DNA of 64,000 nucleotides from Candidatus Eremiobacteria bacterium (lineage in GTDB: Bacteria; Vulcanimicrobiota; Vulcanimicrobiia; Vulcanimicrobiales; Vulcanimicrobiaceae), in the NCBI GenBank assembly GCA_963696095.1, contig CAVOIN010000002.1, forward strand, positions 403,939 through 467,938. Reading direction: 5' to 3'. Position numbers and translations under genes: made by a program. Of this stretch, positions 2,236 to 64,000 are shown piece by piece (the first letter of the stretch is position 1; the number at the start of each line of letters is the position of its first letter). The notes below the pieces were generated by a model. The model ran no database searches and was not told the DNA's origin. It saw only the letters and a list, made by a program, of their open reading frames with translations.

Positions 2236-2661
2236 CTAACCTTCGTTTTCCTCGTCTTGCTCGTGCTCGTGGTGCCCGTGCTCGTGTCCGTGGTGCCCGT
2301 GTTCGTGTTCGTGTTCGTGTTCCTGTTCGTGCTGGTGATGTCGGGCGTGCCCGAGGTCGATACCCGCTCTTATGGCTTCGAGTACAGCGCTGCGCTCATC
2401 GGCGCTGAACGTTAGGTTTCGGCCCTCACAAACTTCATCCAAAACCTGATTGGCATCTTTGAAGTCGTCTAGGGCGGCACCTAACTGGACACACGCGTTA
2501 GCAAGTCCATCGAGGAACCGGGCCGACGCAGCAAGGTTCTCAATCCTGCCGTCCTTTTTTAATAGCCCCACGAGTGCCGTGGCAATCTCGGAGGCCATGT
2601 CAGGAGGATAAGCCGATTCGTCGATGAGCAGACGCATTAAGAGTTGGTGCGTGATGGTCAT
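2236..2661 (-). CDS. hypothetical helical protein with His/Glu-rich C-terminal tail (putative metal binding)
   Basis: ORF with GGAGA RBS. C-terminus is HARHHQHEQEHEHEHEHGHHGHEHGHHEHEQDEENEG. Confidence 0.55.
   Translation of the reverse strand: MTITHQLLMRLLIDESAYPPDMASEIATALVGLLKKDGRIENLAASARFLDGLANACVQLGAALDDFKDANQVLDEVCEGRNLTFSADERSAVLEAIRAGIDLGHARHHQHEQEHEHEHEHGHHGHEHGHHEHEQDEENEG
2299..2328. repeat. hexanucleotide tandem repeat GTGTTC x4 (+1 degenerate) encoding the (EH)n tail
   Basis: Direct reading of 2299-2328: gtgttcgtgttcgtgttcgtgttcctgttc. Confidence 0.8.
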
Positions 2662-2994
2662 GTCATTTCTCCGATTTCATGTTCGCGGTCGATTTAACGC
2701 ACGAATCTGGCGAAAGCTCAAGCAGATGTTATTTCTTCATTGTCAAAATTCGACATTCGCTGTCGCGTTTTCGTCGAGCTCGCTTTTCGATCTACCGAAC
2801 ACTACCCACAAAATGCTATAAATGCGCCTGCTGCTGAGACCGAAATAGCGATAGCTTCGACGAACATGGCACGATGTTCACGCGACCTTTGTTGCGACAT
2901 TTTCCAATACTAGCGGAATCCTATGCCAGCAGGGCGTCACGATGCGTGTAGGCGCGACCTCGCTTGGCGCATCAAGTGATCTTTCGGCGTGAAC

Positions 2995-3021
2995 GAAAAA
3001 AGCGCGCCATTCGACGCGCTC
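2995..3021 (-). terminator. rho-independent terminator downstream of tRNA-Leu
   Basis: Minus-strand RNA AGAGCGCG-UCGAAUGG-CGCGCU followed by UUUUUU. Confidence 0.7.
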
Positions 3022-3035
3022 TTGCTCTAAGGTTT

Positions 3036-3366
3036 TGGGATGACCGGGACTCGAACCCGGACGCCCTTTCGGGCTGCAGATTTTCGCACCACTATGGCTT
3101 TCGCTACCGCACTATCGCGTTTGTGGTCCGGACTGTGCCTTGACCATGCGGATCGTTCTAAATCTGACCCGTTAGGCCGCGCCCATCCAGTCTCTACACC
3201 TTCTCGAATCTGCGTTCGCAGATCGAGCTTGGCTCGGCGTTGTCATGCGCTGAAGCGCGCGAAGAGTTCACCGACTTTGAGCGCATCCCGCACGGCGTTT
3301 CCCGATCGTGCGGCTCAAGGAGTGTTACCTCAAGTCTGCTGTGTCTACCGATTCCACCATCATCCC
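3036..3366 (-). tRNA. tRNA-Leu(UAA) gene interrupted by a group I intron (exons 3366-3332 and 3084-3036)
   Basis: 5' exon is GGGAUGAUGGUGGAAUCGGUAGACACAGCAGACUU. 3' exon is AAAAUCUGCAGCCCGAAAGGGCGUCCGGGUUCGAGUCCCGGUCAUCCCA. The spliced 84-nt product has a 7-bp acceptor GGGAUGA/UCAUCCC, and a D-arm UGGUGGAAUCGGUAGACAC as in E. coli tRNA-Leu(UAA) from memory. It also has anticodon stem GCAGA/UCUGC, loop CUUAAAA, a long variable arm, T-arm CCGGG-UUCGAGU-CCCGG and discriminator A. Confidence 0.85.
3085..3331 (-). ncRNA. group I (IC3-like) intron in the anticodon loop of tRNA-Leu(UAA)
   Basis: 247 nt lie between U34 and A35. The upstream exon ends in U and the intron ends in G. An internal GAG can pair with exon CUU (P1 with U.G). 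There is a hairpin CCGCACG...CGUGCGG with a GAAA loop. AACGCCGAGCCAAGC and GAAGGUGUAGAGACU match my memory of the Azoarcus tRNA-Ile intron core. No ORF inside. Confidence 0.75.
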
Positions 3367-3372
3367 ATAGCG

Positions 3373-3615
3373 CTACTGTCGATAGTGTTCGACAGTGTCT
3401 GCCGACCGCATATGCGCAATGTTTGGGTCTTGTCCTGCATCGCGACGTGCGCGGCGTTGACGCAGCAGATCCCAAAACCGGTCGAGTTGCACTTGAATGT
3501 CTTCTAAGCGCTTGCGGTCTTCTTCATTCAAATGGCCGCCGTCGCCGTGCTCGAGGAGACGATGCTCTTCAGCTACGAGACCCTCGATGTGATCATTGAT
3601 CTGCTTGTCGTCCAT
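3373..3615 (-). CDS. DUF2630 family protein
   Basis: ATG at 3613-3615 follows GGAGG. MDDKQINDHIEGLVAEEHRLLEH...WDLLRQRRARRDAGQDP... fits the DUF2630 pattern. The stop lies 7 nt before the tRNA 5' end. Confidence 0.65.
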   Translation of the reverse strand: MDDKQINDHIEGLVAEEHRLLEHGDGGHLNEEDRKRLEDIQVQLDRFWDLLRQRRARRDAGQDPNIAHMRSADTVEHYRQ

Positions 3616-3720
3616 GGCGCTACCTCCGGGAAGCCGTTGATGCCATCCTTCCCCCATTTGAACGCGGGCAGGCGGCGCTAGGCTGCTAAAAAGTTTCGAA
3701 TATGGGTAACCATAGTCACC

Positions 3721-4293
3721 GTGCAACAAGAGGATATACCTTCCACCTTCCTGGGCGACGGATTCGTCGGCCGGGGACATGCGACCGACAACCCGCCGGC
3801 TTGGTGGCGCACCTTCGTCTTCCGGGTGCTCACAGGCCGCCAGCTCAGCGTTCTTCTTTACCTTCTTACCTGTATGGCGACTCAGGACGAGTGCAGCCCG
3901 ACAACGGAAGAGATCCGCTCGTTCGTTGGCCTGAACCGGCCCAACATGGTCTTCGAGGCGCTCGACATTTTGGATGACTACGGCTTCGTCGTCCGGCACC
4001 GCCGCGTGCTTCCGGGCTTGAGCGGCCGAAGGAACTTGTACCAGCGTCCGCCGTGGGAGTACACGATTCTACGCTTGCTCCAGCTAGGAATTCTCGACGA
4101 GCGCCTGCGCGTGCGGCATCTTGAATCGAGCTACACGCCGGAAATCATGCGCGAACTCGATACCGCCGCGCGCGGATTGCTGGGGGATCGTTACGACGAA
4201 TACGCGTCGAGCGACGGCGGTCAGAGCAAGAAAATGCTCATGACGGCGCTGTCCGCAAAGATTGACGGACACCCGCACCTACGCTCGGTTTAG
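3721..4293 (+). CDS. hypothetical protein, possible winged-helix DNA-binding domain
   Basis: 190-aa ORF. The central segment LSVLLYLL...TTEEIRSFVGLNRPNMVFEALDILDDYGFVV looks wHTH-like. Start is uncertain. Confidence 0.4.
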   Translation: MQQEDIPSTFLGDGFVGRGHATDNPPAWWRTFVFRVLTGRQLSVLLYLLTCMATQDECSPTTEEIRSFVGLNRPNMVFEALDILDDYGFVVRHRRVLPGLSGRRNLYQRPPWEYTILRLLQLGILDERLRVRHLESSYTPEIMRELDTAARGLLGDRYDEYASSDGGQSKKMLMTALSAKIDGHPHLRSV

Positions 4294-5211
4294 ATATCTT
4301 CCTGATCGCGCTGTTGCAGCAAGTAGCCGAGAAGCAAATCGGAGCTGGTTGCGACGGCGCGATCCTTCGTCAGCATCTCGAGGATTGTATCGATGATGAT
4401 CATGCCGGCCGGCAAGATGTCGGCGCGTTGCGGATTCATGCCGGGGACGTCTTTCCGGCGTTCGTAAACGAGCGCGCACAGCACAGAGAGCGCGTGCGCA
4501 AGGTCGCTGCGCGTGAGATCGAATCGCTCGCCGGGTACACCGCCGTGAATTACCGCGGCCGCCGTCATTGCCGATCCGCCGACGATCGCGAGTTTATCGA
4601 TTGCACGAAATCGCGCGATCGGTTCGAGCGCTTCGCGAGCGTATTCGCGCGCGCGTTCCATTACTACCGATGCGAGAGCGCCGTCGTGTCCGGCAAGTTC
4701 GGGAACGCGCTTCGGTCAGACGAACGGCGCCGACTTCGCACGACACGGTGCGTTCGGCATGCGTGCCGCGGCCGATCGCATATTCGGTACTGCCGCCGCC
4801 CGTATCTACGACGCCGACCTCGGCGCCGTGCAGATGTCCGAATTCGCTGATCGCGCCGCGATAGGACGCTTGCGCTTCTTCATCGCCCGATAGCACGCGC
4901 AGTTTTGCGCCGGTGATGCGTTTAATCTCCGCCGCAAACGTTTCGCCGTTTTGCGCACGCCGCACGGCGGAGGTTGCAATTACGGAGAGACGATCGTACT
5001 GGCCGCGGATTCGTTCGAAGTGCGACTGCACCGCTTCCAGCGTTCGGCGCACCGGTTCTTCGCCGAGCTCGCCGCGTTCACGCAATCCTTCGCCGACGCG
5101 CGTCCCGGTCGCAAGCGCCAGTACCGTGCGGGGACGCTCGCCGGAAAGATCGGCCAACAGGACTCGCGTGGAGTTCGTGCCGATTGAAATGACGGCATCC
5201 TGTCGGCTCAT
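4290..5211 (-). pseudogene. Ppx/GppA family phosphatase, frameshifted
   Basis: The N-terminal frame (4594..5211) has ISIGTNSTRVLLAD and DTGGGSTE motifs. The C-terminal part continues in another frame (4290..4661). The frame switch is near 4660-4720. Confidence 0.75.
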
Positions 5212-5221
5212 GCGGATGCCC

Positions 5222-5586
5222 TTACTGTTCGCTGTGTTTGGATTCGAAGAGCGCTGCGCGCTTTTTCTTCTTTAGGAAATGGCGCTCGGCGGACGGCACG
5301 CCTTGCTCGTTGGCGTCCCACTCTTCGGTGCTGCTGCAAGTAGTGCGCGATCTGTTCGTCGAGTTCTTCGTCGTGAATCTGCGGCGCAATCGTCACCATC
5401 GGACGCCGTTCGCCCGGGATGAACCATGAACATCAAGCGTTTGCGGCCTGTTAGCCCGCGTTCGTATTCTGAGTGGTGCGCTTCGACGTCGCCGGCCGGC
5501 GCGCTCGCGAGTTCACCCGATTCCAGGCGCACCGTTGCGCCATACGCATTGACGTTGATGACGAAGCCGTAGACGGGATCGGTCAC
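5222..5586 (-). pseudogene. S1 RNA-binding domain protein (YabR-like), frameshifted
   Basis: GTG at 5584-5586 overlaps the upstream stop (GTGA). S1 core is YGFVINVNAYGATVRLESGELA. The C-terminus has to be read in two further frames (...IAPQIHDEELDEQIAHYLQQ / STEEWDANEQGVPSAERHFLKKKKRAALFESKHSEQ*). Confidence 0.6.
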
Positions 5587-5952
5587 GGAGCGGTGGACGG
5601 CGCGGCCGATGGGGCCGGGCTCACGAAAATAATCGCTTCGTTCGGCGCGACGAGCCGCAGGCGGTCGTGAATTTCGGGAATCGTTCCGTCGGGCGATTCT
5701 AAGCGGCGCAGTTCGCGCAACTGATGTTCGCGATGCGCGTGCAACGCGCTGATATCCGATTCGGTGGACGAGAGTTCGCGCGCAAGCGCGACGTTTTGAT
5801 TGATCACGCGCGTAAATTGCACCGTAACGAGCGTGAATACGAGAAGCGCAACAAGCGCCGCAGTCAAACGTCCGGCGAAGGAAACAACAGCGGAGCACGC
5901 GTGCGCTTCTTCACGTGCCTCTTCGATCGCTTCCCGGCGCTCGTTTTGCCAT
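5583..5952 (-). pseudogene. septum formation initiator (DivIC/FtsB family), frameshifted near the N-terminus
   Basis: The basic N-terminus is spread over frames from ATG 5950-5952 ([20 protein letters not shown]). A TM helix RLTAALVALLVFTLVTV, a coiled coil and ...RLRLVAPNEAIIFV follow. Confidence 0.6.
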
Positions 5953-5956
5953 GCGC

Positions 5957-6897
5957 CTATCCGCCGATATTTCGAATAGCGCGCCTCCTGCAACGCCTCC
6001 GGCGTCATTGCCGATAGCCGTTGCACCGAGGATCGGATTGCATCGAGCACTTTCGCAACCGTCGCCGCGGCTTCGCGATGCGCACCGCCGAGCGGTTCCG
6101 GAACGATTTCGTCGATGATGCCGAAGCGCTCGCAGATCCTCGGCGGTTAGTTTCAACCGCGTCGCCGCCTCTTCCGCCTTTGCGGCATCGCCCCAGAGAA
6201 TCGCGGCGCAGCCTTCCGGCGACGCGACCGAGTAAACGGAATGCTCGAGCATGATGACGTGGTCGGCAATTCCAAGCGCGAGCGCGCCGCCGCTGCCGCC
6301 TTCGCCGATGATCGTTGCAACGATCGGCACCTGCGCGCTCGGTGAACTCATAGAGGCAGCTCGCGATCGCTTCGGATTGCGCGTGCTCTTCCGACGTGAT
6401 GCCGGGATCGGCGCCCTTCGTGTCGATGAACGTAACGATCGGCACGCCCAAGCGCGATGCGGTATGTGCGAGCCGCTGCACTTTGCGATAGCCTTCGGGC
6501 GTCACCATGCCGAAGTTGCGACGCAGATTTTCTTTGGTGTCGCGGCCGCGCTGCTGCGCCGATCACCATGACCGGGTGCGCCCGAGCAGCAAGCGAAACC
6601 GCCGACGATCGCCGGGTCGTCGCGGATGAGCCGGTCGCCGTGCAGTTCGTCGAACCGGTCGAGTTGCGAGATATAGTCGAGCGACGTCGGCCGGTTCGGA
6701 TGGCGCGCCATGTGCACCTTCTCCCACGGCGTCAGCGATCCGAAGATCTCGCGCTGAATCTCTTGCGTATTTCTGCTCGAGCGCCGGCGATTTCGGCCGA
6801 CATGTCGACGGGCTGGCTGTGCGTTCGCGGCGCGCAGCTCGGCGATGCGGCGCTCGAGCTCGAGCAGCCCCTTTTCGCGTTCGACGATCAGATTCAC
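5957..6897 (-). pseudogene. accA: acetyl-CoA carboxylase carboxyltransferase alpha subunit, multiple frameshifts
   Basis: AccA motifs are spread over at least 4 frames: [28 protein letters not shown]; [30 protein letters not shown]; [31 protein letters not shown]; [11 protein letters not shown]. Confidence 0.8.
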
Positions 6898-6903
6898 GCG
6901 ACG

Positions 6904-7753
6904 TCACCTTAACCGAACTCCGACGGCGTACTCCAGCAAGCGCACGATCGTGGCTTTGAGCTCGTGACGGTCGACGACCATGTCGATGTGGCCTTTTTCG
7001 AGCAAGAATTCGGCCGTTTGAAACTGCTCGGGCAGTTTCTGGCGGATCGTCTGCTCGATGACGCGCCGTCCGGCGAAGCCGATCATGGCTTGCGGTTCGG
7101 CGACGATGACGTCGGATTCGAATGCGAACGACGCCGAGACGCCGCCCGTCGTCGGGTCGGTGAGCACCGTCACGAAGAAGTTGCCGTCGTCGCATGAAGC
7201 GCTGCACCGCGGCGGTCGTCTTGGCCATTTGCATGAGCGCGAGCATGCCTTCTTCCATGCGCGCGCCGCCGCACGCCGTGAAGATGATGCACGGAATGTG
7301 CGCGCTCGCGCGCTTCTTCGAGCAGCAGCGTGATGCGCTCGCCGACGACGGTGCCCATCGTGCCGCCGCGAAAGTGGAAATCCATCACGCCGAGCGCGAC
7401 GTCGAAGCCGCCGATCTGTCCGATGCCGCACACGACGCCTTCGGCACATGCCGCTCTTCTCTTGTCGCCGGCGATCTTCGACGGGATACGTCTTCTTGTC
7501 GACCCAGTCGAGCGGATCGCCCGGCTGCACGTCGGCGCCGATCTCCGTGAAGTCGCCGTCGATCAGCATGCTGATGCGGTCGTACGCCGCTCATCCGGAA
7601 ATGATGGCCGCACTTCGTGCAGACGTAGAGGTTCGCGGCGAGATCGCGCCGGTACAGCACCTCGTTGCACTTCGGGCACTTGCTCCAAAGCGCCGCGTCG
7701 CGCGCGTCTGCGTTCTTGCTGCGGCGGATGCGCAGCCATTCGGGCATCGGCAT
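6904..7753 (-). pseudogene. accD: acetyl-CoA carboxylase carboxyltransferase beta subunit, multiple frameshifts
   Basis: Zn-ribbon N-terminus [55 protein letters not shown] and [33 protein letters not shown] lie in different frames. Confidence 0.8.
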
Positions 7754-7759
7754 GGCGTC

Positions 7760-8482
7760 CTAACTCTTCCCCGGAAAGAGCCGCGCCGCTGTAGAGCTTG
7801 CGCAGCTGCTTCAGGTAGTTGAAGATTTCTTTTTCGTTCAGCTTCGACTCGCCGACGATGCGGTCGGTGAAGACGTACGGAACCTCGATGCGCGCTCCCG
7901 TAGTGCGCCTTCGCGACGACTTCGAGGCCGATCTTGAATCCGATCGGGTCGAGCTCGACGCCGTCGAGCGCTTCGCGCTTCACGAAGAAATAGCCGCTCG
8001 TGATGTCTTTCACGTTCGTCAGCGGCCGCGCGAGCCAGCAGGCGACTTTCGACGTAACGATGCGCTTCGCGGGCCAGTTGGTGATGCCGCCGCCCTTCAC
8101 GTAGCGGCTGCCGATGGCCAGCCCGTAGCCCCGATGCGAGCGCCTGAACCATCTGCGGCAGGATGTTGATGTCGTGGCTGAAGTCGGCGTCCATCGCGCC
8201 GAGCGCTTCGGATTCGGGACGCGCGAATTTCCAGCCGTCGATGACGCCGCTCGAAAGCCCGAGCTTGCCGGGGCGATGCAGGCATCGTACGGGGAGTTCC
8301 GCGGAGAGACGGTCGACGATCGCGCCGGTACCGTCCGGCGAGTTGTCGTCGACGACGATGATTTCGCCGTCGAGGCCGTTCTTTTTGAAGAGCTCATCGA
8401 GCCCGCGAAGCAGACGCTCGATACCGCCGGCTTCGTTATAGGTCGGAATGACGATGGAAAACGGGAAACTGCTCATCTTCAA
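7760..8482 (-). pseudogene. GT2 polyprenol-phosphate sugar synthase (Dpm1/Ppm1-like), frameshifted
   Basis: FSIVIPTYNEAGGI...VVDDNSPDGTG...MDADFSHD in one frame. GSRYVKGGGITNWP...DITSGYFFVKREAL and ESKLNEKEIFNYLKQLRKLY lie in others. Confidence 0.7.
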
Positions 8483-47474: not shown

Positions 47475-47548
<74 letters not shown>

Positions 47549-49342: not shown

Positions 49343-51001
49343 CTAGGCGAGGTTGGACCGGCGGGGGTAGACGACCGCCGGATCGGTCAGCACGTTGACG
49401 AGCGCGGGCTGACCGCACGAGAGCGCGCGGTCGAGCGCCGCGCGCAGGTCCTGTGGGCGCTCGACGAGCTCGCCGTGGCATCCCAGCGCCTCCACGACCT
49501 GGTCGTAGCGCGTCGCCGGGCGCAGGTCGGCCGCTACCGAGTACCCGTAGAGGAACTCCATCGGGTGCTTCTCGAGCGCCCAGATGCCGTTGTTGCCCAT
49601 AACGCCGACGACGTTCACCCCATGCCGTGCGAGTGTGTCGAACTCCATCCCCGAGAACCCGAACGCGCCGTCGCCCAGCAGCAGCACGACCTGCCGGTCG
49701 GGCCGCGCAAGCTTCGCCGCCAGGGCATAGCCCGGGCCGGCGCCGAGGCAGCCGAACGGTCCCGGGTCAAGCCAGCACCCGGGCGCGAAGCTGTCGACGA
49801 CGCGGCCCGCGTAGGAGACGAAGTCGCCGCCGTCGCCCACCACTATCGCGTCGCGATCCAGCACCTCGGCAAGCTCGGCATACAGGCGCATCGGGTGAAG
49901 CGGCGCGCGGTCGTCCGCGAGCTCTGCGCGCTCGCCTTCACGGCGCTCGGTCTCGGCCGCGCGAAGCTGGGAGATCCAGGCCTCGCTCGCGAGGCCCCTG
50001 CCGCCGGCCATGTCGCGGATGCCGGAGAGCGTCGCGGGCAGGTCTCCGTAGCACTCAGCCGCGACGGCCCGTGGATGGCGGCGCTCGGGCTCTGCGACAT
50101 CGACGACGACGATTTCCGTGTCCTCGCCGAACGATGCGCCGAAGCCGAGACGGAAGTCCATCGGCACCCCCACCACCAGCGCAACGTCCGCGCCTTTGAG
50201 AGCATCCGAGCGGGCCCGCGAGAAGAACAGCTCGTGGTCGGCGGCCACGCAACCGCGGGCCAGCCCGTTCAGGAAGACGGGGATCCGCAGCGCTTCGGCG
50301 AGCTCGAGCAGAGCCTGCTCGCCCCGCCCCCAGTAGAGGTCGGTGCCGGCCATGATCACCGGACGCTCCGCTGCCCGGAGCAGCTCGCCGGCACGGTCGA
50401 TCGAGGCGGGATCGGCGGCGCGGGCGGCCGAGGTCGAGGCGGCGTGCCCGTTCAGCGGCTCGGGCTCGGGCGCCTCCATGAAGACATAGTCCAGCGGGAA
50501 GTCCACGAACGCCGGCCCGAAATGCGGCGTCAGCGCGGCGGTGAACGCGTCGTCGAGCAGACCCGGGATCTCGGCGGTGCTCTCGGGGGTCGCGGCGAGC
50601 TTCGTCAGCGGCCGCACGAACGGCACGTGATCGATCTCCTGCAGGGAACCCTGTCCCCAGCGCATCGCCGGGGCGCGACCACCGAGCACGACCATCGGCG
50701 AGTGGTTCGCCTGCGCGGCCGCGATCGCGCTCATCCCATTGGTCACCCCGGGGCCCGCCGTCAGTGCGCAGACCCCGGCCTCGCGCGTGACCTTCGCCCA
50801 GCCCTCTGCGGCGAAGGCGGCGGTGGACTCGTGGCGCACGTCCACGATCTCGATGCCCTCCGAGCGGCAGCCGTCATAGATCGAGAACAGGTGCCCGCCG
50901 GACAGCGTGAAGAGCTTGCTGACGCCGTGCGCCTTCAGGCGCCTTGCGACGTGCCGGCCGCCGTGAACCATCGTGGTCTCCTGCGCGCTGTCGGTCGACA
51001 T
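49343..51001 (-). CDS. thiamine diphosphate-dependent enzyme (acetolactate synthase large subunit-like)
   Basis: 552 aa. [10 protein letters not shown]...[14 protein letters not shown]...[11 protein letters not shown]...[17 protein letters not shown]...GNNG. Confidence 0.75.
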
Positions 51002-51055: not shown

Positions 51056-51139
51056 TGCCCGGGACGGGATTCGAACCCGCAGGCTCTTGCGAGCGGCAGA
51101 TTTTAAGTCCGCTGACTTTGCCAATTTGTCTACCCGGGC
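51056..51139 (-). tRNA. tRNA-Leu(UAA), uninterrupted
   Basis: Reverse complement is GCCCGGGUAGACAAAUUGGCAAAGUCAGCGGACUUAAAAUCUGCCGCUCGCAAGAGCCUGCGGGUUCGAAUCCCGUCCCGGGCA. 7-bp acceptor, loop CUUAAAA, long variable arm. Confidence 0.8.

Positions 51140-60593: not shown

Positions 60594-64000
<3,407 letters not shown>

Follow-up and report, generated by a model that had tools for sequence, protein, structure and literature searches.

The window analysed here, a 64-kb stretch of DNA, encodes on its minus strand a tRNA-Leu(UAA) that is very probably functional. Its gene is split between U34 and A35 by a genuine group I intron of the IC3 type, a predicted ribozyme. The intron is an ordinary new addition to the bacterial IC3 tRNA-Leu(UAA) family, found in a phylum without an explicit earlier description, and it leaves the knowledge of group I introns unchanged.

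Gene organization and tRNA identity

Reading of the minus strand between 2900 and 3500 gives two exons, 3366-3332 and 3084-3036, that join into a class II tRNA-Leu(UAA). The gene and its immediate surroundings comprise the following elements:

3373-3615, minus strand: co-oriented DUF2630 gene upstream of the tRNA (Pfam PF10944, E=2.5e-28)
3332-3366, minus strand: 5' exon of tRNA-Leu(UAA), 35 nt (GGGAUGAUGGUGGAAUCGGUAGACACAGCAGACUU, ending in ...GCAGACUU), with the acceptor 5' strand, the D arm, the anticodon stem 5' strand and C32, U33 and U34
3085-3331, minus strand: intron, 247 nt, 5' end GAGG, 3' end GUGCG, between U34 and A35 (CUU/AAAA)
3036-3084, minus strand: 3' exon of tRNA-Leu(UAA), 49 nt (AAAAUCUGCAGCCCGAAAGGGCGUCCGGGUUCGAGUCCCGGUCAUCCCA, starting with AAAAUCUGC), with A35, A36, A37 and A38, the anticodon stem 3' strand, the long variable arm, the T arm, the acceptor 3' strand and the discriminator A (A73); CCA is not encoded
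2996-3023, minus strand: GC-rich hairpin resembling a terminator, located 13 nt downstream of the tRNA and continued by UUUUUU

The spliced 84-mer is identified by ARAGORN as tRNA-Leu(taa), and its cloverleaf has a 7-bp acceptor stem, a long variable arm, A73 and the anticodon UAA. In its intron mode, ARAGORN also returns tRNA-Leu(taa) from the unspliced DNA, with a 247-nt intron directly 3' of the first anticodon base. An earlier interpretation made from the letters of the window (the sequence-only reading) had proposed the exon lengths, the class II tRNA-Leu and the loop CUUAAAA, all of which are borne out to the base by the sequence read and by ARAGORN, and its placement of 247 nt between U34 and A35 is confirmed by the intron mode and by manual joining. 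Both the exon-terminal U and the intron-terminal G that it pointed out are present: U34 (3332), the final base of the 5' exon, is U-1 of the 5' splice site, and the final G of GCG (3085) is omega-G. The exons are 93-95% identical to those of three Eremiobacterota orthologues (four species compared), and the variable arm carries compensatory changes among the orthologues (GCCCGAAAGGGC, GUCCGAAAGGAC, GCGGGAAACCGC). In the window, the locus is missed by default ARAGORN and by the Rfam scan at the gathering score, which find only tRNA-Met at 47475-47548 and an uninterrupted tRNA-Leu(UAA) at 51056-51139. Because default settings miss the gene, annotation pipelines run in this way likely under-count tRNA-Leu(UAA) and likely leave 330 nt unexplained in the genomes of this lineage.

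The stop codon of the DUF2630 gene lies 6 nt before the start of the tRNA, which suggests that the two genes are co-transcribed. The same neighbour is common to eight related loci (L031, L128, L133, L135, L136, L137, L141 and L145). The hairpin downstream of the tRNA has a predicted energy of -19.7 kcal/mol (z=-3.3), and none of 200 shuffles was equally stable. No promoter was found at the locus in the promoter/terminator scan, whose consensus scanner also missed this minus-strand hairpin.

Among the matches listed, the closest relatives of the pre-tRNA belong to Candidatus Eremiobacteraeota bacterium (L031), Candidatus Elarobacter sp. (L005) and Vulcanimicrobiota bacterium (L036), with 76-80% identity to the window over the whole pre-tRNA. 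The neighbouring genes in L031 are 66-79% identical to those of the window and their order is conserved, and Candidatus Elarobacter is placed under Vulcanimicrobiota in the NCBI taxonomy. The host had been suspected from the surrounding genes not to be a cyanobacterium, and this agrees with the Eremiobacterota (Vulcanimicrobiota/WPS-2) labels of the syntenic and orthologous loci; the host, a soil bacterium, most likely belongs to this phylum. The NCBI labels Solirubrobacteraceae, Solirubrobacterales and Actinobacteria on close Mfd relatives conflict with three independent Eremiobacterota labels at syntenic loci and were set aside as probable mis-assignments.

Assignment to the group I introns

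To search the window with a profile independent of the lineage, nhmmer was used with 88 tRNA-Leu(UAA) introns of other phyla, leaving out the window and its three closest relatives. Across the whole 64 kb, this profile yields one significant match, at 3338-3077 on the minus strand (119 bits, E=4.6e-36), which spans model positions 2-240 of 241 (239 of the 241 profile positions). A second match at 50479-50545 (E=0.013) falls inside a ThDP-enzyme ORF and is considered a chance hit. The Rfam model for group I introns, which had been suggested as a check, gives a borderline result: in a permissive scan of 2850-3550 (701 nt), the alignment of RF00028 is full-length (model 1-253; 3341-3106 of the window on the minus strand) with E=8.5e-5, yet its 27 bits do not reach the gathering score of 50 bits, and the gathering-threshold scan contains no entry for the locus. 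This gathering score is an operational threshold and not a structural feature. One survey states that the RF00028 seed contains zero bacterial sequences and gives a cut-off of 18-20 bits for tRNA introns (Williams, 2020; bioRxiv 10.1101/2020.01.27.920355). Since the RF00028 score is borderline, membership in group I rests on the lineage-independent profile and on covariation. Both support the IC3-like reading that had been offered, and these comparisons place the insert among the genuine group I introns of the IC3 type, as a tRNA anticodon-loop intron of type Leu.3Ug. Additionally, two stretches that the sequence-only reading had likened to the Azoarcus core (AACGCCGAGCCAAGC and GAAGGUGUAGAGACU) are found in the Azoarcus olearius tRNA-Ile seed of Williams (2020).

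Further candidates in the region were discarded. Weak Rfam matches to isrK, sX14 and mascRNA (E=0.23-5.4) fall on the T arm and on the terminator and represent chance or generic hairpin and tRNA-like signals. A protein-coding reading of the insert was likewise rejected, as its three overlapping ORFs have no Pfam match; no homing endonuclease was found in the 247-nt intron, and the remark that it is too short to carry one holds.

Secondary structure and covariation

The seed alignment of Williams (2020) served as the homology template for drawing helices P1 to P9 on the window sequence, and the only non-canonical pair in the model is an A.C in P9b. In 5' to 3' order of the RNA, the elements are:

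3314-3334, minus strand: P1 hairpin, formed by exon CUU and intron GAGG together with CCUUGAG, the internal guide at 3320-3314
3290-3311, minus strand: P2 hairpin with a GAAA-type L2; four of five outer pairs show compensatory changes within the lineage
3279-3284, minus strand: P3 5' strand, GCGCUC, pairing with GGGCGC at 3184-3179
3234-3274, minus strand: P4-P5 domain, with P4 (3274-3270/3238-3234), J4/5 GAA and the P5/P5a hairpin (3262-3243)
3198-3233, minus strand: P6/P6a hairpin, with the base GCC...GGU and a 10-bp extension with a bulged U
3189-3194, minus strand: P7 5' strand, G-A(bulge)-GACU, pairing with AGUCC at 3134-3130
3179-3184, minus strand: P3 3' strand, GGGCGC, placed by the homology model and covariation
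3142-3178, minus strand: P8/P8a hairpin with the internal loop CCUAAC...GCAUGG; the base pairs of P8 covary across phyla
3130-3134, minus strand: P7 3' strand, AGUCC, preceded by J8/7 AAGGCAC
3085-3127, minus strand: P9 three-way junction, made up of P9.0 (ACCAC/GUGGU), P9a (GAUA loop) and P9b (GAAA loop); GCG follows on its 3' side

Two sets of sequences were used to evaluate this model. In a MAFFT alignment of 30 diverse tRNA-Leu introns from many phyla, 95.2% of the helix cells are paired, compared with 30-43% after the 3' partners have been shifted by 1-3 columns, and double changes occur in 27 of the 47 pairs; none of 500 shuffles reaches the observed values. The covarying helices in this alignment are P3, P4, P6a, P8, P9.0 and P9b. 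Within the lineage (18 sequences), 95.4% of the cells are paired under the full model, P3 and P7 are invariant, and compensatory changes are present in P1, P2, P6, P6a and P9b. RNAalifold, applied free of annotation to the 18 distinct lineage members, recovers the anticodon stem formed between the exons as well as P1, P2, P4, P5, P6a, P8/P8a, P9.0, P9a and P9b, with compensatory changes in 28 of 74 pairs, and mis-draws the P3/P7 pseudoknot, as expected. A foldable P3-P7 core with a G-binding sequence had been named as a test of the proposal, and the complete P1-P9 model, supported by covariation, contains it. The intron is concluded to be a real feature and to be under selection in the lineage. 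When the intron is folded on its own, its minimum free energy does not surpass that of shuffled sequences (z=-1.1), and the fold fails to yield the core; a weak single-sequence result is expected because the RNA is pseudoknotted and GC-rich, which makes this energy uninformative for such a ribozyme.

At the 5' splice site, the wobble between U34 (3332) and G (3316) is invariant in 30 of 30 and 18 of 18 sequences, and the neighbouring pairs of P1 covary; the pairing of an internal GAG with CUU that had been noticed earlier is thereby present as C6-G26, U7-A25 and U8.G24 of P1. P7 is equally invariant and 100% paired in both sets (30/30 and 18/18), and the columns of GAGACU...AGUCC and J8/7 do not vary across the 30 introns. 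By homology with the Azoarcus and Tetrahymena literature, the G-C pair of P7 beside the bulged A is a putative guanosine-binding site. For P3, 100% of the cells are paired and five of six pairs show double changes across phyla, with no variation within the lineage. P4 (UCGGU/GCCGA) is also 100% paired and two of its pairs covary; both P4 and P5 are among the helices recovered independently by RNAalifold. All four outer pairs of P6a covary, the base of P6 is invariant across the 30 introns, and P9.0 and P9b covary upstream of omega-G. The internal loop of P8 resembles the 11-nt GAAA-tetraloop receptor and may form the corresponding contacts, by analogy with the Azoarcus structure.

Independent assemblies and intronless alleles

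Exact look-up of the proteins of the two flanking genes led to independent short-read (Logan) contigs from other samples. One of them (L126) covers the whole pre-tRNA with an intron 97.5% identical to that of the window, and another (L127) runs through the 5' exon and 152 nt into the intron. In both, a C-G pair of P6 in the window is replaced by U-A. In L126, P8a is longer on both strands and the A.C of P9b is mended to A-U, and the corresponding pair in L031 is G-C. Structurally, these differences of L126 and L127 from the window are compensatory. Relative to the window, both short-read contigs are one G shorter in L2 and one A shorter in the P5 loop, so that L2 reads CGGGAAACG in the window versus CGGAAACG, a clean GAAA tetraloop, in the two short-read contigs. 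A third contig (L124) differs from the window by four further single-base indels across 2.5 kb of coding sequence nearby, where it encodes an intact Ppx (306 aa). Because of these single-base differences from short-read contigs, the window assembly appears somewhat indel-prone. The actual length of the intron may be 245 nt, and the A.C pair in P9b and the non-canonical L2 may reflect either assembly indels or a real weakening of the window copy.

In addition, a scan of metagenomes (JGI) was performed with the 3' exon alone, a query able to catch both interrupted and uninterrupted alleles. Of the 22 contigs retrieved, 20 either contain an intron of 222-260 nt or break off inside it. The other two (L136 and L137) are intronless (...CACAGCAGACUU|AAAAUCUGCAG...) and have the same DUF2630 gene upstream. 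The presence of both alleles at one syntenic locus makes it usable for studies of intron gain and loss.

These data bear on two other accounts of the locus. The indels of the window assembly could raise the suspicion that the insert was created during assembly, as an artefact or chimera, or its likeness to group I introns might be fortuitous. Such an explanation is next to inconceivable: independently assembled contigs of other samples extend across the entire pre-tRNA (L126) or the 5' half of it (L127), orthologous introns occur in 20 JGI metagenome contigs and three species-representative genomes, and a chance resemblance is already refuted by the profile match (E=4.6e-36). The artefact that the sequence-only reading had listed as a possible refutation is likewise refuted by the insert in L126, L127 and 20 of the 22 metagenome contigs.

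A second account takes the intron to be a decaying or protein-dependent remnant that has kept its fold and self-splices inefficiently, in a weak or silent gene, with the copy at 51056-51139 decoding UUA and UUG. That second tRNA-Leu(UAA) could make the interrupted gene dispensable, the window copy is irregular in P9b (the A.C mismatch) and in L2, and relatives carry intronless alleles at the same locus. In many plastid trnL introns, self-splicing has been lost, which counts in the same direction. This account is nevertheless improbable, since 20 distinct members of the lineage retain every core helix with compensatory changes, no variation is seen in P3, P7, J8/7, omega-G or the U.G wobble, the exons are still under tRNA-like constraint, and the irregularities of the window copy are missing from the short-read contigs of the same population.

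Proposed splicing pathway

If the tRNA-Leu(UAA) gene is functional and its intron a ribozyme, transcription would probably proceed together with the DUF2630 gene and end at the hairpin and U-tract around 2996-3023. In the precursor, the exons would form the anticodon stem, and the intron would adopt the P1-P9 fold, including the P3/P7 pseudoknot. An external guanosine, docked in P7, is predicted to attack after U34, held in the U.G wobble of P1; the terminal G (3085) would then occupy the same site, and the freed 3'-OH of U34 would attack after this G. Ligation of the exons should produce the mature anticodon loop CUUAAAA, with the junction ...GACACAGCAGACUU|AAAAUCUGCAGCCCG (GGUAGACACAGCAGACUU|AAAAUCUGCAGCCCG).

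The excised or unspliced intron might also have a regulatory role, for instance by tying the supply of tRNA-Leu(UAA) to guanosine nucleotides or stress, and this role, in place of neutrality, would account for its retention. The intron is kept in 20 of 22 related contigs in spite of having no endonuclease, and its location immediately after a protein gene hints at joint transcription. Retention is explained equally well by the precise deletion that is needed to lose the intron without destroying the tRNA, and nothing in the analysis points to regulation; such a role, which would be compatible with a self-splicing intron in a functional gene, is considered very unlikely.

Distribution of the intron type

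A pattern consisting of the intron core and the first bases of the 3' exon was scanned against one genome per GTDB species and retrieved at least 119 loci, and all 119 that are listed are matched by the intron profile. ARAGORN reports tRNA-Leu(taa) with an intron directly after U34 in 87 of the 119 loci among the matches listed, and a stricter manual extraction identifies at least 96 of them as tRNA-Leu(UAA) split at U34/A35. The hosts among the matches listed all belong to non-cyanobacterial phyla and include cultured strains, with a pattern that had been chosen to disfavour the cyanobacterial GUGCAG variant. In these matches, Alphaproteobacteria are represented by Rhodovulum steppense, Sphingomonas yantingensis, Bradyrhizobium lablabi, Reyranella soli and Paracoccus, Betaproteobacteria by Burkholderia and Paraburkholderia, and Gammaproteobacteria by Carnimonas nigrificans and Microbulbifer. 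Acidobacteriota, Planctomycetota, Bacteroidota (Arsenicibacter, Emticicia), Chloroflexota, Bdellovibrionota, Binatia and Bacilli are further hosts among the matches listed. The ARAGORN intron mode also reports tRNA-Glu and tRNA-Arg 'introns' in L005, which have no profile match and are false positives.

The idea that the host lineage and the history of the intron may be unusual does not stand against at least 119 loci with the same intron core across many non-cyanobacterial phyla. A tRNA-Leu(UAA) intron was reportedly described before in a gammaproteobacterium. In the literature consulted, no paper links Eremiobacterota with group I introns. In a survey that comprises 5292 tRNA introns, Leu.3Ug is given as one of four classical types (Williams, 2020; bioRxiv 10.1101/2020.01.27.920355).

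Relationship to known introns and evolutionary history

Identity of the core to the window intron is 69% for an alphaproteobacterial tRNA-Arg seed (Rur1.Arg.5Ug), the nearest sequence outside the lineage, about 57-64% for other tRNA-Leu introns, 58% for Azoarcus and 53% for the trnL intron of Synechococcus elongatus, the lowest value among the sequences compared. In a neighbour-joining tree, which is crude (210 well-aligned columns, without support values), the 20 Eremiobacterota sequences form one clade, and the tRNA-Arg(CCU) intron of the Agrobacterium type (Rur1.Arg.5Ug) is its sister.

The cyanobacterial trnL intron shares with the window intron the tRNA and the site (CUU/AAAA, U34/A35), U-1, omega-G, the lack of an ORF, the IC3 architecture and a three-way P9 with a GAAA-capped arm. 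In both, an anticodon stem can form between the exons, and the Anabaena intron is said to need this stem. Unlike the cyanobacterial introns, the window intron has a P2 that directly follows P1, a GAU-type J2/3, approximately 58% GC and an Eremiobacterota host, and it reads GUGUAG where the Synechococcus elongatus seed has GUGCAG. The Anabaena intron also reads GUGCAG. Non-cyanobacterial Leu.3Ug introns have the same gene, site and fold, and the shared helices covary; most have a UGC spacer after P1 and a GYAGAA J2/3, whereas the Eremiobacterota clade has CC and GGGAU. The tRNA-Arg(CCU) intron has in common with the window intron the GAU of J2/3, AAAGUCGG, GACUGGAUGGGC and the layout of P9, but it interrupts another tRNA, two positions further 3' in the anticodon loop (5 versus 3). 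The Azoarcus tRNA-Ile(CAU) intron is an IC3 model ribozyme with crystal structures. It contains the core strings CAACGCCGAGCCAAGC and GAAGGUGUAGAGACU, a P2 with a GAAA loop, the order of P3 to P8 and a CCUAAG/UAUGG-like P8 receptor, as in the window intron, and differs in its tRNA and site (5Ug) and in a P9 that is a simple hairpin instead of a three-way junction.

It is conceivable, at rather low probability, that the Eremiobacterota clade descends from an Arg(CCU)- or Ile-type IC3 intron that moved into U34/A35 of tRNA-Leu(UAA), and not from a cyanobacterial trnL intron. Under such a switch of site, the 'ancient cyanobacterial' position would be a hot spot that has been occupied more than once, and a shared site would become a weaker argument that the trnL intron arose just once, at an ancient date.

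Longer relatives of the intron (L044, L066, L069 and L098; 687-847 nt) carry HNH ORFs and have hosts in Chloroflexota, Chloroherpetonaceae, Bacilli and Chitinophagaceae, which offers a plausible route for the spread of the family between phyla. The Eremiobacterota introns occupy a fixed locus, group in a single clade and lack an endonuclease, which speaks for vertical transmission and occasional losses: the intron appears to be inherited vertically in this lineage, and some relatives appear to have lost it or never had it. The second tRNA-Leu(UAA) of the window (51056-51139) contains the same CUUAAAAUCUGC target sequence and is uninterrupted, which fits an immobile element.

Intron-plus and intron-minus alleles

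Two related JGI metagenome contigs, L136 and L137, carry a tRNA-Leu(UAA) gene that lacks the intron behind the same DUF2630 gene, the co-oriented upstream neighbour of the intron-bearing tRNA:

L136, 304-393, intronless tRNA-Leu(UAA) allele
L137, 1151-1236, intronless tRNA-Leu(UAA) allele

Compared with the intron carriers, these alleles constitute a natural intron-plus/intron-minus polymorphism at a single locus. The window also contains a further gene for this tRNA, 48 kb from the interrupted one:

51056-51139, minus strand, uninterrupted second tRNA-Leu(UAA), Rfam tRNA model score 54 bits

This copy has no intron. Its identity to the intron-bearing tRNA after splicing is about 60%, and CUUAAAAUCUGC is present in both. 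Since one isoacceptor is thus encoded by two genes, the question arises which of them is the main decoder. The D loop of the second copy is unusual (AAAUUGGCAAA).

Variation within the intron family

Across the P1-J2/3 region of alignments A1 (MAFFT, 30 diverse tRNA-Leu introns) and A2, at least two layouts are found among tRNA-Leu(UAA) introns. The majority layout has a UGC spacer after P1 and GYAGAA as J2/3, whereas the minority layout, which is nearer to tRNA-Arg and tRNA-Ile introns, is devoid of the UGC spacer, reads G(G)GAU or GUGAAU at the junction and is carried by the Eremiobacterota clade, one Planctomycetota locus (L009) and one Burkholderiales locus (L092). Among the matches listed, four loci have long tRNA-Leu(UAA) introns of 687-847 nt (L044, L066, L069 and L098, hosted by Chloroflexota, Chloroherpetonaceae, Bacilli and Chitinophagaceae); their ORFs, 119-214 aa long and containing HNH or HNH_3 domains, likely encode homing endonucleases. 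In two further loci the complete intron is accompanied, at a distance of a few hundred bases, by a partial second match to the intron profile; this match may represent a truncated duplicate copy or remnant:

L013, 6112-6257, minus strand, E=3e-34
L015, 934-1052, minus strand, E=2.5e-10

Assembly, host lineage and neighbouring genes

The source assembly of the window seems prone to indels, a common trait of long-read assemblies. In 3338-5902 it differs from independent short-read contigs by single-base indels (four against Logan contig L124), and differences of this kind probably extend through 5500-7800. The indels break ppx (4290-5211) into several frames, while Ppx-GppA is intact in L124 (306 aa); accA/accD are probably disrupted likewise.

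60594-63863, minus strand, Mfd

The closest relatives of this protein (P0003, P0009-P0011, P0014; 93-96% identity) are named Solirubrobacteraceae, Solirubrobacterales or Actinobacteria bacterium at NCBI, and Eremiobacteraeota, Elarobacter or Vulcanimicrobiota are the labels on syntenic loci that carry the orthologous tRNA intron. Public taxonomy labels for the host lineage are probably wrong.

2236-2661, minus strand, 141-aa ORF a short distance downstream of the tRNA
3721-4293, plus strand, 190-aa ORF, oriented divergently to the DUF2630-tRNA unit

The former, found as an identical protein in five other assemblies and without a Pfam match, ends in a histidine- and glutamate-rich C-terminal tail (HHQHEQEHEHEHEHGHHGHEHGHHEHEQDEE) and may be a metal-binding protein. 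The latter gives a weak, sub-threshold match to the LexA DNA-binding domain (E=3e-4) and has been called as a gene on each of the four Logan contigs.
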